NCBI RefSeq assembly: GCF_003018235.1
Contig: NZ_CP027437.1
DNA length: 64,000 bases
Reading direction: 5' to 3' (one strand)
DNA from: Escherichia coli
GTDB lineage: Bacteria; Pseudomonadota; Gammaproteobacteria; Enterobacterales; Enterobacteriaceae
Shown piece by piece: positions 6,628 to 31,974 of this stretch (position 1 is its first letter; every line of letters begins with the position of its first letter). The translations under genes were made by a program, and so were the position numbers. Under the pieces are notes generated by a model, which ran no database searches, was not told where the DNA came from, and was given only the letters and a program-made list of their open reading frames with translations.

Positions 6628-7206
6628 TTACGCCTGATTATCCGGCTTTTTCTTCCCGCGTCGTTTCAGCCACCAGCGCACGCCTACCACCAGAACCACG
6701 ACCAGAATCAACCAGACCCAGTGCTTCAAATGCTGGTCGAGATTGTGCAACCACGGCGCAATCACCTGACCACCAGCGTAACCGATAGTGGTAAAAATCA
6801 ACGCCCAGGCAAATGCGCCGAGAATATTAAGCGGCAGAAAGATTTTCGGCGGCAGCTGGCTGGCACCAATCAGCGTCGGGCCAATCACCCGAAAGCCATA
6901 CATAAAGCGCGTACCAATGACAAACAGATACGGATGGCGTTGGATCAGTTTCTGCGCCCGCTCAATTTTATCCTGATGTTTCGAGAAACGGCGTAACAGC
7001 TTGCCGCCAAACCGCCGCCCGCACAGATAGAGCACCTGGTCGCCAATCATGCCGCCAAGCGCTACAGAAAGTACCACCAGCGGGAACTTTAATAGCCCCT
7101 GATGTGCCGCAACGCCTCCCAGCAAAGTCACGGTTTCACCTTCCGCCAGGCTACCGATAACCAGCGCGGCATAACCATATTGTGAGATGAGTGTATTGAG
7201 ATCCAT
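6628..7206 (-). CDS. yohD: DedA-family inner membrane protein
   Basis: ORF 6628..7242; start chosen at ATG complement 7204-7206 (MDLNTLISQYGYAALVIGSL). Confidence 0.9.
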   Translation of the reverse strand: MDLNTLISQYGYAALVIGSLAEGETVTLLGGVAAHQGLLKFPLVVLSVALGGMIGDQVLYLCGRRFGGKLLRRFSKHQDKIERAQKLIQRHPYLFVIGTRFMYGFRVIGPTLIGASQLPPKIFLPLNILGAFAWALIFTTIGYAGGQVIAPWLHNLDQHLKHWVWLILVVVLVVGVRWWLKRRGKKKPDNQA

Positions 7207-7375
7207 AGGCCAGTCTGTCTCCCTTTGGTTGCCTGTAAGCATACACCCTGTGAATCATTCACGCTGAAAAAGGACGTACATCAGACGGTGCAAATTACAT
7301 GGGCGAACAAAAAATAATCACAAGCTGACTTATACTTGAACTGTCAGGTTCATGAACTCACAACAAGGGGGCGGT

Positions 7376-7963
7376 ATGAGCCATGTCTGGGGACTGTTTT
7401 CCCATCCCGATCGTGAAATGCAGGTGATTAATCGCGAAAACGAAACGATTTCTCACCATTACACCCACCACGTTTTGCTGATGGCGGCGATTCCGGTGAT
7501 TTGCGCCTTCATTGGCACTACACAGATTGGCTGGAATTTTGGCGATGGCACTATCCTGAAGTTATCCTGGTTTACCGGACTGGCGCTGGCTGTCCTGTTT
7601 TATGGCGTTATGCTCGCTGGGGTCGCGGTGATGGGGCGGGTCATCTGGTGGATGGCGCGTAATTATCCGCAGCGTCCGTCACTTGCGCACTGCATGGTCT
7701 TCGCGGGCTACGTTGCAACTCCGCTGTTTTTAAGCGGTCTGGTGGCGCTTTATCCGCTGGTCTGGTTGTGTGCGCTGGTCGGCACGGTGGCACTGTTTTA
7801 CACCGGTTACCTACTTTACCTTGGTATTCCGAGCTTCCTGAATATCAACAAAGAGGAAGGCCTTAGCTTCTCCAGTTCGACGCTGGCGATTGGCGTGCTG
7901 GTACTGGAAGTGCTGCTCGCCCTTACCGTTATACTATGGGGCTACGGGTATCGTTTGTTCTAG
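7376..7963 (+). CDS. yohC: Yip1-family inner membrane protein
   Basis: ORF 7352..7963; start at ATG 7376 (MSHVWGLFSHPDREMQ); multiple transmembrane segments. Confidence 0.9.
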   Translation: MSHVWGLFSHPDREMQVINRENETISHHYTHHVLLMAAIPVICAFIGTTQIGWNFGDGTILKLSWFTGLALAVLFYGVMLAGVAVMGRVIWWMARNYPQRPSLAHCMVFAGYVATPLFLSGLVALYPLVWLCALVGTVALFYTGYLLYLGIPSFLNINKEEGLSFSSSTLAIGVLVLEVLLALTVILWGYGYRLF

Positions 7964-8136
7964 AAAGTTCTTTTGCGCTGCATTGCTGGCGTAAATGTCA
8001 GCAATGCAGCATTTCCTCACGATTCTCCTTTGACGATCGCACTTTTTGCTCGTTATGATGGCGTCGCTAGCCTCAGTAAATCCTTACTCCGGCGGTGCGC
8101 AACCCGTGCGCGTGAACCACTATCTGAATGCTCATC

Positions 8137-29328: not shown

Positions 29329-30417
29329 TCACGGCAGGCGGTGGCGGGCTTGATAATAAGCCTGCCAGTGAGCTTCTTTATGTGTGGCGACTCGCTGTTC
29401 GAAGTAACGGCGCAGACGAGCGCGATCTTCTTCGTTATCTTTGACGATGGTTCCGGCAATACAGTCCACCAGATCGGCTGGCTCACCTGCGCGATTCGCT
29501 AAAAACCAGGCGCGGACGCCCACAGCGTGGGCCACGTTCACGGCTTCAGCGGTGGACATAATCGCTGTTAGTGTATCCATTGACGTTTTCTTTTCGCCGT
29601 TGGCACGCAGATCGCGGAAGGTGCGGACCAGTAACTCCAGTACCGCGTCAGGCACTTTATGCGGAATACCGCTATGGGCCAGCAAACGCGCCGAAGCACT
29701 GGCGACAAGCTCCAGCTCCTGGGCGAAATCCATAATCGGAAAGACAGTTTCAAAATCGAAGCGACGCTTTAGCGCGGCACTCATCTCATTGACGCCACGA
29801 TCGCGCGTATTGGCAGTGGCAATAATATTAAAGCCTTCTCGCGCATAGAGCTGACTGGCTTCACCAGTGAGTTCCGGCACCGTCATCACCCTGTCAGAAA
29901 GCATACCTAACAGACAGTCTTGCACTTCCAGCGGTGTACGCGTTATCTCTTCAAAACGGACGATTTTGCCGTCGCGCATTCCCTGGTAAAGCGGGGCAGG
30001 GACCAGCGCTTCCGTTGATGGACCATGATTGATAAGCAGGGCGTAGTTCCAGCCGTACTTGATTTGATCTTCGGTAGTAGATGCGCCGCCCTGGATGGTT
30101 AACCCGGCATCGCCGCTAATAGCGGTTGCCAGTAATTCAGACAGGAGAGATTTTGCGGTGCCAGGTTCCCCCACCAACATCAAACCGCGTCCGGTGGCAA
30201 GAGTGACTAACATACGTTCGACAGCGGAGGGACTAATCACCACTTTACGGCTAATATTTTGCGCGCTATCGCCAAGGATAAAAGCACGGGCCGCAGGCAA
30301 ACTTAACTGCCAACCGGGCGGGCAAGGTGCGTTATCATTTTGTTTTAATTTTGCCAGTTCATCGGCGTATAACACAGCAGCAGGCGGACGCTGCAGATGA
30401 TTATTCTGCGGTGACAT
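29329..30417 (-). CDS. yehL: MoxR-type AAA+ ATPase
   Basis: ORF 29329..30483; start at MSPQNNHLQRPP, 362 aa; Walker A GEPGTAKS, Walker B-like region. Confidence 0.88.
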   Translation of the reverse strand: MSPQNNHLQRPPAAVLYADELAKLKQNDNAPCPPGWQLSLPAARAFILGDSAQNISRKVVISPSAVERMLVTLATGRGLMLVGEPGTAKSLLSELLATAISGDAGLTIQGGASTTEDQIKYGWNYALLINHGPSTEALVPAPLYQGMRDGKIVRFEEITRTPLEVQDCLLGMLSDRVMTVPELTGEASQLYAREGFNIIATANTRDRGVNEMSAALKRRFDFETVFPIMDFAQELELVASASARLLAHSGIPHKVPDAVLELLVRTFRDLRANGEKKTSMDTLTAIMSTAEAVNVAHAVGVRAWFLANRAGEPADLVDCIAGTIVKDNEEDRARLRRYFEQRVATHKEAHWQAYYQARHRLP

Positions 30418-30528
30418 ATATTCATCCCTGAAATGTATTAATGAAATAAACGATATTTTACGCGCAATAAATGTTTGGCGCATTAGTTGTTTGAGCGAAA
30501 AATATCTGGAAAGCAGATCACAGTAAAT

Positions 30529-30625
30529 AAAAAAACCTGCTGGTGAGGCAGGTTCTTTTATTTACTATTTTCAGGCCTAACACCACAGCCTGTGCAACAT
30601 CGTGTTCCAACGAACGAATTATAAC
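30529..30625 (-). ncRNA. orzO: Candidate Orz-like antitoxin sRNA (copy 1), ending in hairpin acctgcctcaccagcaggt + U7
   Basis: Minus-strand intrinsic terminator at 30529-30552; body contains about 20 nt (complement of gcaacatcgtgttccaacgaacg) able to pair with the leader of the adjacent toxin mRNA (30757-30782). 5' end not determined. Confidence 0.5.
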
Positions 30626-30849
30626 CACGGCTGGACCCCGTTGCAATTAAGATAATGAGATTTATAATCCAGACCGTTGGGACGTTGCGCCGGATCGAAC
30701 CTATTTCAAGTCCTGGCTACCGGACGGGTGGTGCTGCAGGTGGTGCCCTGATCCGGGGTGCAACATCGTGGTCCAACATACGTAAACCAGTATCGACAGG
30801 CAGTGTAAGGGTAAGGTGCTGGTGTTGCGCTCCTTAATAAGAAGAGCGG

Positions 30850-30939
30850 ATGGACACGCTGACACAAAAGTTAACCGTGCTCATTGCTGTACTGGAGCTA
30901 TTAGTGGCTCTGTTACGGTTGATTGATTTGTTGAAGTAA
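30850..30939 (+). CDS. zorO: Type I toxin, Zor family: 29-aa hydrophobic peptide MDTLTQKLTVLIAVLELLVALLRLIDLLK
   Basis: Hand-translated; SD-like AAGAG upstream; followed by terminator hairpin; sequence matches my memory of ZorO from E. coli O157:H7. Assignment of O versus P to a given copy is arbitrary. Confidence 0.75.
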   Translation: MDTLTQKLTVLIAVLELLVALLRLIDLLK

Positions 30940-30960
30940 CGGGCAAATTGAAACGCATCT

Positions 30961-30989
30961 AAGGGGGAAAACCGCTTCCCCCTTTAATA
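30961..30989 (+). terminator. Intrinsic terminator after the toxin gene (aagggggaaaaccgcttccccctt + T-rich)
   Basis: Seen in sequence. Confidence 0.55.
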
Positions 30990-31134
30990 AAATGATTACT
31001 GTTTTTATTAATTCATCATATAACTCATTTTTATTTATAAATTCATCGATTTTATATTCAACGCACCATTTGACCGGGATGTGAATATTTATGGTGGGCT
31101 ATTGGCAAAAAATATCTGGAAAGTAGATCGCAGA

Positions 31135-31230
31135 AAATAAAAAAACCTGCTGGTGAGGCAGGTTCTTTTATTTACTACAGTGACGCTAACTTGCTGATTG
31201 TGCAACATTTCGTACCAACGAATAAATTAT
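31135..31230 (-). ncRNA. orzP: Candidate Orz-like antitoxin sRNA (copy 2), same terminator as copy 1
   Basis: Terminator at 31135-31164; pairing segment (complement of gcaacatttcgtaccaacgaata) matches the leader of toxin copy 2 (31367-31391) but differs from copy 1. Confidence 0.5.
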
Positions 31231-31457
31231 AACCATATCCACACTCCATTGCAATTCAGTGAGTGAGATTTATAATCCTGCCCGTTGGGAGGTTGTGCCG
31301 GATCGGACCAATTTTAAGTCCTGGCTGCCGGACGGGTGGTGCCGCAGGCGGTGCCCTGATCCGGAGAGCAACGTTTCGTACCAACATACGTAAACCAGTA
31401 TCGACAGGCAGTGTAAGGGTAAGGTGCTGGTGTTGCGCTCCTTAATAAGGAGAGCGG

Positions 31458-31547
31458 ATGGACACGCTGACACAAAAGTTAACCGTGCTCATTGCCGTAC
31501 TGGAGTTATTAGTGGCTCTGTTACGGTTGATTGATTTGTTGAAGTAA
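31458..31547 (+). CDS. zorP: Type I toxin, Zor family (second copy; identical 29-aa peptide with synonymous changes)
   Basis: Hand-translated; differs from copy 1 only at synonymous positions (GCT/GCC, CTA/TTA). Confidence 0.75.
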   Translation: MDTLTQKLTVLIAVLELLVALLRLIDLLK

Positions 31548-31568
31548 CGGGCAAATTGAAACGCATCT

Positions 31569-31597
31569 AAGGGGGAAAAACGCTTCCCCCTTTAATA
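31569..31597 (+). terminator. Intrinsic terminator after toxin copy 2 (aagggggaaaaacgcttccccctt)
   Basis: Seen in sequence. Confidence 0.55.
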
Positions 31598-31656
31598 AAG
31601 CTATACTCGTCATACTTCAAGTTGCATGTGCTGCGACTTGAATTATCTAGAGTATA

Positions 31657-31974
31657 TTATTCTATTTCTTGGTTGAATATATTCTGTAGTTCACGATTAA
31701 AAATTGCTATTACAGTTTCAGGTGATTCACCTCGTAATTTCCGCTCATCAATACACTCATCTCTTATATAAATCAACGCATCATTTATTAGCGGGTCAGC
31801 ATCTTCTCGATCACGTTGATGAAATGTTGGATGTAGCCGGAATCGCTCCAGTCGATAGACGGAACCTGTAAATAATTCAGAGCATTTATGGATCTCAAGT
31901 CTGAAGGAAAACGGATCTTCAGGTACAGGGACCTCATAATCGTAAATAGCAACCAGCTCTTTTTGCACGATCAT
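31657..31974 (-). CDS. yehK: Uncharacterised small protein (105 aa), AT-rich gene
   Basis: ORF track; position between yehI and the zor/orz units. Confidence 0.8.
   Translation of the reverse strand: MIVQKELVAIYDYEVPVPEDPFSFRLEIHKCSELFTGSVYRLERFRLHPTFHQRDREDADPLINDALIYIRDECIDERKLRGESPETVIAIFNRELQNIFNQEIE

Follow-up and report, generated by a model that had tools for sequence, protein, structure and literature searches.

Tandem zor-orz type I toxin-antitoxin modules of Escherichia coli with copy-specific pairing segments in antitoxin RNA and toxin leader

The closest described relative of the locus studied here is the zor-orz type I toxin-antitoxin locus of Escherichia coli O157:H7 EDL933, which lies between yehL and yehK and carries a P-type module followed by an O-type module (Fozo et al. 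2010; PMC3919570; PMC5397157). The small RNA (sRNA) OrzO rescues cells from zorO, and RNase III is required for the rescue (Wen, Won and Fozo 2014, PMC3919570). In the same work, the first 18 nucleotides (nt) of OrzO were sufficient for repression when grafted onto other sRNAs, and OrzP, at an equal expression level, gave no rescue from zorO (PMC3919570). Repression is lost when the V1 triplet of OrzO is replaced by ACG, OrzP gains repression of zorO when its own V1 is replaced by GAA, and a compensatory mutation in V1 of zorO restores control by the OrzO V1 mutant (PMC3919570). The minimum for function is 15 continuous or 17 discontinuous base pairs; a 6(1)11 pattern works in OrzO, and 16 discontinuous pairs are insufficient even with low toxin induction (PMC3919570). 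The OrzO-dependent cleavage sites fall inside the base-pairing region, and the V1 target has been described as single-stranded, with a kissing-complex model proposed for the contact (PMC3919570). The 5' untranslated region (UTR) of zorO is 174 nt long and contains an EAP (exposed after processing) region, +73 to +102, which is opened by removal of the first 28 nt (PMC5397157). The EAP region is probably a ribosome standby site, and OrzO thus also blocks translation (Wen, Harp & Fozo 2017, PMC5397157). A survey published in mSystems in 2024 described zorQ/orzQ as a third type, reported an orphan OrzP that is expressed in MG1655 (OrzPmg), concluded that 99.8% of Orz sRNAs can repress their cognate zor, and suggested that the variable pairing region may prevent crosstalk (PMC11264685). 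Here we analyse a tandem zor-orz locus in a 64,000-nt stretch of E. coli (contig NZ_CP027437.1 of assembly GCF_003018235.1; hereafter the window), in which each Orz very probably pairs strongly only with the leader of its own module and thereby silences the adjacent toxin.

The tisB/istR-1 system is present in a single copy, is controlled by the SOS response, and faces no problem of discriminating between paralogues. It resembles zor-orz in that the divergently encoded sRNA pairs through its 5' end, about 100 nt upstream of a sequestered ribosome binding site, with a standby site exposed only after 5' processing, and in that the duplex is cleaved by RNase III (PMC3919570, PMC5397157). The ibs/sib systems, a parallel drawn in the 2014 paper, likewise have several paralogous toxin/sRNA copies per genome and choose the cognate partner by short recognition sequences. 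They differ in that Sib is a fully overlapping cis-antisense RNA with two recognition domains, whereas Orz, which is divergently encoded, has one such domain of 18 nt (PMC3919570). In ColE1 RNAI/RNAII and R1 CopA/CopT, a few single-stranded nucleotides determine how specific the first kissing contact is, and with it the compatibility of related elements, as in the model for V1 (PMC3919570); these systems serve replication control and are unrelated in sequence. The zorQ/orzQ type and other natural variants share with the window the same architecture, the conserved duplex ends, and a central core that co-varies between Orz and leader (PMC11264685). The Q leader core, AUGGCGACU, does not occur in the window; other strains have it, in P+Q or O+Q tandems.

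The locus in the window is a tandem duplication (30480-31620) with a period of about 608 nt, in which a 300-nt block is 87% identical and a 73-nt block 95% identical between the copies. The flanking genes are yehL and yehK, a placement also seen in 10 E. coli loci fetched for comparison, O157:H7 included. The 1,141-nt stretch is 98.9% identical to the equivalent chromosomal site of O157:H7 and 99.5% identical to that of strain PS10-3. The Rfam family RF02083 (OrzO-P) matches twice on the minus strand, at 30529-30604 with 99.9 bits and at 31139-31212 with 88.8 bits (gathering score, 60). Both hydrophobic toxin open reading frames (ORFs) of 29 amino acids (aa) encode MDTLTQKLTVLIAVLELLVALLRLIDLLK, the zorO product of O157:H7. 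The V1 triplet (Orz +9 to +11) is ACG in copy 1, as in OrzP, and GAA in copy 2, as in OrzO; the same ACG/GAA code is the published specificity determinant in EDL933. Because of the two OrzO-P matches, the ZorO-identical ORFs, the yehL-yehK site, the identity to O157:H7, and the V1 triplets, the locus is a tandem pair of zor-orz type I toxin-antitoxin modules, with copy 1 of the zorP-orzP type and copy 2 of the zorO-orzO type.

Within each module, the orz gene diverges from the toxin gene and is under its own promoter, the two promoters being arranged back to back (TTGCAA/TATAAT). By alignment, all four pairing segments are the O157:H7 versions, and the order of the modules, the promoters, and the UTR length are likewise the same. 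Copy 2 is identical to O157:H7 from the Orz terminator through its own terminator. Copy 1 differs in that its toxin carries T3, as does ZorO of O157:H7 copy 2, whereas O157:H7 ZorP has S3 at the same position; the window also carries 30757 A>G and 30842 G>A. A search of NCBIfam with the 29-aa toxin returned no family, and the RefSeq genomes inspected carry no annotation of either the zor ORFs or the orz sRNAs. Since these annotations are uninformative, the identification is based on Rfam, on identity to O157:H7, and on the publications.

To locate the 5' ends of the two Orz sRNAs, we used the published V1 numbering: with the ends at 30611 and 31219, +9 to +11 read ACG and GAA, respectively. 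Each start lies 6 nt downstream of a TATAAT box. The 5' pairing segment of OrzP, GUUGGAACACGAUGUUGC (30594..30611, minus strand), pairs with the target site GCAACAUCGUGGUCCAAC in the zorP leader (30760..30777, plus strand; +85 to +102, the EAP region's 3' end). The 5' pairing segment of OrzO, GUUGGUACGAAAUGUUGC (31202..31219, minus strand), pairs with the target site GCAACGUUUCGUACCAAC in the zorO leader (31368..31385, plus strand; +85 to +102). The OrzP/zorP duplex follows the 6(1)11 pattern, with its 17 Watson-Crick pairs interrupted at Orz +7 by an A.G mismatch, and the OrzO/zorO duplex comprises 17 Watson-Crick pairs and one G.U pair. The sequence-only reading of this DNA had quoted four 23-nt strings as the segments involved. 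Each string occurs once, on the plus strand (30594-30616, 30760-30782, 31202-31224, and 31368-31390), as quoted, but pairing is confined to the first 18 nt: the sRNA-region strings finish in 5 nt (GAACG and GAATA) that fall between the -10 box and the Orz start and hence are not transcribed.

Comparison of the copies confirms that sRNA and leader have changed together. The sRNA segments differ at 4 of 18 positions (8, 9, 10, and 13) and the leader segments at 6 of 18 (6, 8, 9, 10, 12, and 13), and all four sRNA differences are mirrored by the identical base at the same position of the leader. By our own arithmetic, the chance of identical bases at identical positions is about 6e-5. Of the two additional leader differences, that at position 6 produces the G.U pair in copy 2 and that at position 12 the A.G mismatch in copy 1. 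The duplex ends, GUUGG and GUUGC, are common to both copies, and the centre differs at Orz +6 and +9 to +11. When up to three mismatches are allowed, the 18-mer of each Orz is matched in the 64-kb window by nothing but itself and its own leader, where 0.05-0.06 matches would be expected by chance. As a side observation, the RF02083 model begins 7 nt downstream of the sRNA 5' ends placed by V1 numbering (30605-30611 and 31213-31219), and therefore leaves out 7 nt at the start of the segment that functions in pairing.

The predicted duplex energies agree with the claim of the sequence-only reading that pairing across copies is weaker. Over 18 nt, the cognate duplexes have energies of -26.5 kcal/mol for OrzP with zorP (17 Watson-Crick pairs, no G.U pair, one mismatch) and -28.1 kcal/mol for OrzO with zorO (17 Watson-Crick pairs, one G.U pair, no mismatch). 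The non-cognate duplexes reach -15.7 kcal/mol for OrzP with zorO (13 Watson-Crick pairs, two G.U pairs, three mismatches) and -16.9 kcal/mol for OrzO with zorP (13 Watson-Crick pairs, one G.U pair, four mismatches). Cofolding of the whole sRNAs with full-length leaders or leaders processed by 28 nt, in which intramolecular structure is included, gives binding free energies of -15 to -21 kcal/mol for the cognate and -6.6 to -11 kcal/mol for the non-cognate combinations. The predicted discrimination is thus about 8-12 kcal/mol in both directions. Duplex prediction with the full sRNA and the full UTR was discarded; it ignores intramolecular structure, allows huge loops, and returns -53 to -62 kcal/mol for all combinations.

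The pairing segments are those of O157:H7, and the experiments of 2014 therefore apply directly to the window. In these experiments, OrzP fails to act on zorO, V1 swaps switch specificity both ways, and a compensatory mutation restores control, in accordance with the proposal that copy-specific segments insulate the paralogous modules from each other. The insulation is thus already published for these exact sequences, and the sequence-only reading rediscovered a known result. In the mechanism, which is taken from PMC3919570 and PMC5397157, a sigma-70 promoter in each module very probably produces an mRNA of about 310 nt with a 174-nt leader and the ORF of a 29-aa membrane toxin, and a divergent promoter sharing the -35 element produces an Orz sRNA of about 81-83 nt from the opposite strand. 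The first 18 nt of Orz would pair with leader positions +85 to +102 at the EAP region's 3' end, and pairing would lead to RNase III-dependent decay and block the probable ribosome standby site, so that no toxin is made. Each Orz would form a strong duplex solely with its own leader because the centre of the duplex differs between the copies and the leader has changed to match. We infer that OrzP represses zorP and that OrzO does not repress zorP.

Several points weigh against this reading. The internal A.G mismatch of the cognate OrzP/zorP duplex places it at the published minimum of 17 discontinuous pairs. The non-cognate duplexes keep 13 Watson-Crick pairs and one or two G.U pairs, and weak cross-talk at high sRNA levels is therefore possible. 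The whole upstream half of the module has diverged between the copies (40-88% identity by segment), and the near absence of genomes with two modules of the same class, described below, comes from counts uncorrected for shared ancestry. The literature searched gives a single cross combination, OrzP on zorO, with no report for OrzO on zorP. We also found no published test of OrzP on zorP; the 2014 paper mentions zorP in its abstract and introduction and never in its results (PMC3919570).

To place the two modules among natural variants, we compared 30 modules from 22 sources, comprising the window, nine E. coli genomes, Escherichia whittamii, and metagenome contigs. Adjacent Orz/leader pairs fall into discrete classes with few intermediates. 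The common classes are P, O, and Q; rarer variants comprise an Orz paired with a Q-type leader (L008), two O-like variants (L012/L020 and L022), and a divergent class with a 1-nt bulge (L013). In 29 of the 30 modules, the adjacent Orz and leader form a duplex of -22.6 to -28.1 kcal/mol, and cross-class combinations among distinct variants mostly range from -6 to -18 kcal/mol. Stronger cross-class cases are the two O-like variants on each other's leaders (-23.4 kcal/mol), OrzP on the L022 leader (-20.2 kcal/mol), and the L008 Orz on the L022 leader (-20.8 kcal/mol) and on the P leader (-21.8 kcal/mol). The lone exception among adjacent pairs is found in a bat-gut metagenome co-assembly (L019, reverse strand, 6966-7606), where a P-type orz stands beside a Q-type leader (-13.8 kcal/mol) and is followed by orzQ at the contig end. 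The arrangement could stem from chimeric assembly or from natural recombination; in the latter case, the toxin would be controlled in trans by the sRNA of the next module. We also observed that, of the four main classes, only O forms a base pair between Orz +7 and leader +96 (30605 with 30771 in copy 1); P has an A.G mismatch there, Q an A.A mismatch, and the L008 type a G.A mismatch, which corresponds to the 6(1)11 pattern found to be tolerated in the 2014 work (PMC3919570).

Every source with two copies combines different classes (P+O, P+Q, or O+Q); none in the sample has one class twice. The class frequencies were counted in 5,426 complete E. coli genomes with class-specific 40-nt queries that are unable to seed across classes. 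The P leader occurs in 2802 genomes (2806 places) and the P-type Orz gene in 4681 genomes; the corresponding numbers are 1254 genomes (1254 places) and 1260 genomes for O, and 1098 genomes (1101 places) and 856 genomes for Q. The extra places, i.e., same-class duplicates, number at most 7, as against about 1,770 two-copy genomes, an estimate obtained by subtracting 3,388 genomes with a full module from 5,161 leaders. Were the classes combined at random at the frequencies observed, about 40% of the pairs would be of one class by our own arithmetic, which ignores kinship of genomes. Strain 602354, which has two Q-type leader matches, was rejected as a same-class tandem; one of the two matches belongs to an ordinary P+Q tandem at the yeh locus, and the other is at a different place in the chromosome. 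About 1,880 of the 5,426 genomes have a P-type orz without a P-type leader, and this excess reflects the published orphan OrzP (OrzPmg). The O counts are nearly one to one, and Orz variants, the L008 type for example, could account for the shortfall of Q-type Orz genes. Separately, E. coli K-12 retains a P-type orz without leader target or toxin (L009, 915-932).

We infer that orthogonality is advantageous when two copies coexist. An alternative, possible although on balance doubtful, is neutral divergence: the upstream halves would have drifted after duplication, purifying selection would have kept each sRNA matched to its neighbour, and insulation would be a by-product with no role of its own. 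Consistent with drift, divergence extends beyond the pairing segments, with copy-to-copy identity of 40% in the middle of orz, 75% in the promoter spacers, and 88% in UTR +1 to +84. In addition, the identical P+O arrangement is found in E. whittamii, so that class combinations may be inherited, and the population counts carry no phylogenetic correction. Against drift, no part of the zor transcript has diverged more between the copies than the target segment, with 67% identity as compared with 88% upstream and 98-99% in the downstream parts. At least three slot combinations occur (P+O, P+Q, and O+Q), yet same-class duplicates are as rare as stated above where about 40% would be expected at random. 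The classes are also discrete, with few intermediates among the modules sampled.

The E. whittamii tandem deserves a separate remark. It is of the P+O type (L010, 11995-12799, minus strand), has identical pairing segments, and carries Q6R in the toxin of copy 1. Because the same tandem with identical pairing segments is present in that species, the P/O split would be older than E. coli, or the locus would have been transferred. In species-representative contigs, a 21-nt leader pattern matches in E. whittamii only; exact matching probably misses diverged homologues, and the result is thus a poor guide to the range of species.

A second alternative, which we consider unlikely, is sequence copying, in which a template switch or short-patch conversion altered both direct repeats (same strand, 166 nt apart) at once. 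It would readily produce the four changes shared by sRNA gene and leader, which are identical bases at identical plus-strand positions, and the conserved flanks GCAAC and CCAAC could act as microhomology. However, the repeats are non-identical in every common class, with leader position 6 or 12 departing from the sRNA gene. In L022, moreover, a U-A pair has become a G.U pair with both partners altered at one position and with different bases on the DNA strand: at position 13, the orz gene carries C and the leader T, whereas both carry A in the O type, an outcome that simple copying is unable to yield. This two-sided change therefore favours compensatory mutation over copying between direct repeats. 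In addition, 18 nt is far below the length that homologous recombination usually needs. Least probable of all, and very unlikely in our view, is functional redundancy, in which cross-repression would be appreciable in vivo at native expression and the sequence differences would matter little: the non-cognate duplexes do reach -15.7 and -16.9 kcal/mol with their 5-nt and 5-7-nt ends intact, and P-type orz genes exceed P-type leaders (4681 versus 2802 genomes), so that OrzP may have other roles or targets, but OrzP overexpressed to the level of OrzO gives no rescue from zorO, 16 discontinuous pairs are insufficient at low induction (PMC3919570), and the non-cognate duplexes here have 14-15 pairs with 3-4 internal mismatches.

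Copy-specific pairing with insulation of the two modules thus remains the preferred reading, and the remaining features of the locus are as follows. In copy 1, the gene of the OrzP-type antitoxin sRNA (30529..30611, minus strand; RF02083) is about 83 nt long and ends in an intrinsic terminator hairpin with a U-run. The gene is identical to that of O157:H7, and a nearby difference at 30510 falls outside it. The divergent promoters of copy 1 (30618..30668) have -10 boxes TATAAT at 30618-30623 (minus strand) for orzP and at 30663-30668 (plus strand) for zorP, and share a palindromic -35 element, TTGCAA, at 30641-30646, which serves both strands according to the promoter scan. The zorP-type 5' UTR of 174 nt (30676..30849, plus strand) has an Orz-like 5' end (GUUGGGACGUUGC), an EAP region, and a sequestered Shine-Dalgarno sequence. 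Its +1 follows the -10 box by 7 nt and precedes the ATG by 174 nt, the length published for the zorO UTR. The toxin ORF (30850..30939, plus strand; 29 aa, from the ORF list) is followed by a GC-rich hairpin, AAGGGGGAAAACCGCTTCCCCCTT, with a short T run (30961..30990, plus strand), a self-stem read from the sequence that is likely the zorP terminator. This placement predicts an mRNA of about 312 nt, which agrees with published transcript sizes of about 310 and 280 nt (PMC3919570).

In copy 2, the orzO gene (31139..31219, minus strand; RF02083) is 81 nt long and identical to that of O157:H7. The divergent promoters (31226..31276) have -10 boxes at 31226-31231 (minus strand) for orzO and at 31271-31276 (plus strand) for zorO, with the common palindromic -35 TTGCAA at 31249-31254, again on both strands in the promoter scan. 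The zorO 5' UTR (31284..31457, plus strand; 174 nt) is identical to that of O157:H7 zorO and is followed by the 29-aa toxin ORF (31458..31547, plus strand), which encodes the same product as copy 1. The GC-rich hairpin downstream, AAGGGGGAAAAACGCTTCCCCCTT, with a short T run (31569..31598, plus strand), also a self-stem read from the sequence, is likely the zorO terminator.

The promoter scan of 30400-31700 found just four sigma-70-like sites, which form two back-to-back pairs, one per copy. Identical promoter hexamers are tabulated as conserved in the zor/orz survey (Table 3 of PMC11264685). The shared TTGCAA is separated from the TATAAT boxes by spacers of 17 and 16 nt, and the toxin and antitoxin RNAs both begin with GUUGG. 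The two transcription units may thus compete at the common -35 for a single contact with RNA polymerase. The arms around this element were also considered as an ancient inverted duplication. The resulting z of 3.5-5.0 comes mostly from the promoter hexamers, and the transcribed 5' ends alone give z = 1.8-2.5; such an origin is suggestive and not established.

The fold of the leader offers a view on why the core varies and the flanks do not. A consensus fold calculated for nine leaders, which represent five classes, pairs mRNA nt 1-6 with +97 to +102 and nt 9-14 with +84 to +89, i.e., with the conserved flanks of the Orz site, and leaves the variable core (+90 to +96) in an unpaired loop. In the window, this pairing of 5' end and target corresponds to 30676-30689 with 30759-30777 in copy 1 and to 31284-31297 with 31367-31385 in copy 2. 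Pair 5:98 has changed on both sides in L013. The single-sequence minimum free energy structure has the pairing in the copy 2 leader and none in the copy 1 leader, and the consensus fold was relied on instead. The zor mRNA 5' end, GUUGGGA(C/G)GUUG(C/U), resembles the Orz 5' end minus the specificity core, a weak resemblance in the transcribed parts (z = 1.8-2.5). The modelled open-loop core fits the published single-stranded V1 target that would start the kissing contact (PMC3919570), and suggests that the core may be constrained by Orz alone.

The window also carries substitutions in zorP that are specific to the strain. As compared with the closest complete genome, there are 8 differences in 1,741 nt, two of which fall in zorP translation signals. 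The first, 30842 G>A, changes the Shine-Dalgarno sequence from AAGGAG to AAGAAG, a variant found in one of the 5,426 genomes, and breaks one pair of the hairpin that sequesters it. The second, 30757 A>G, changes the conserved EAP motif from GGAGUG to GGGGUG, a variant found in none of the 5,426 E. coli genomes. AAGGAG is present in 99.8% of loci, and mutation of the EAP GGAG motif matters for toxicity (PMC11264685). By our own arithmetic, the probability that at least two of eight substitutions in 1,741 nt fall by chance within about 10 motif bases is about 0.001. The sequence changes suggest that zorP may be attenuated in the lineage of this strain.

Taken with the leader fold, these substitutions allow a tentative and rather improbable extension, namely that the family is built as a constant clamp around a variable code, that orthogonality itself is selected in a manner resembling plasmid incompatibility, and that the rare zorP substitutions were selected because they damp the copy with minimal antitoxin pairing. 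If true, this could explain why at least three common and several rare orthogonal classes exist and are almost never doubled in one genome. Elsewhere in the window, the other Rfam matches above the gathering score are a Peptidase-S11 RNA motif (8052-8132, plus strand; 72.8 bits) and a TPP riboswitch (54297-54393, plus strand; 71.2 bits), both ordinary for this part of the E. coli chromosome.

The principle of copy-specific pairing and its proof were published in 2014 and the population survey in 2024, and no new biology comes from the present analysis; the value of the result is to confirm that the true pairing sites were recovered from nothing more than a reading of the sequence. As an instance from nature, the locus illustrates clearly how two near-identical RNA-controlled toxin modules coexist without cross-regulation through a few nucleotides in an 18-nt duplex.

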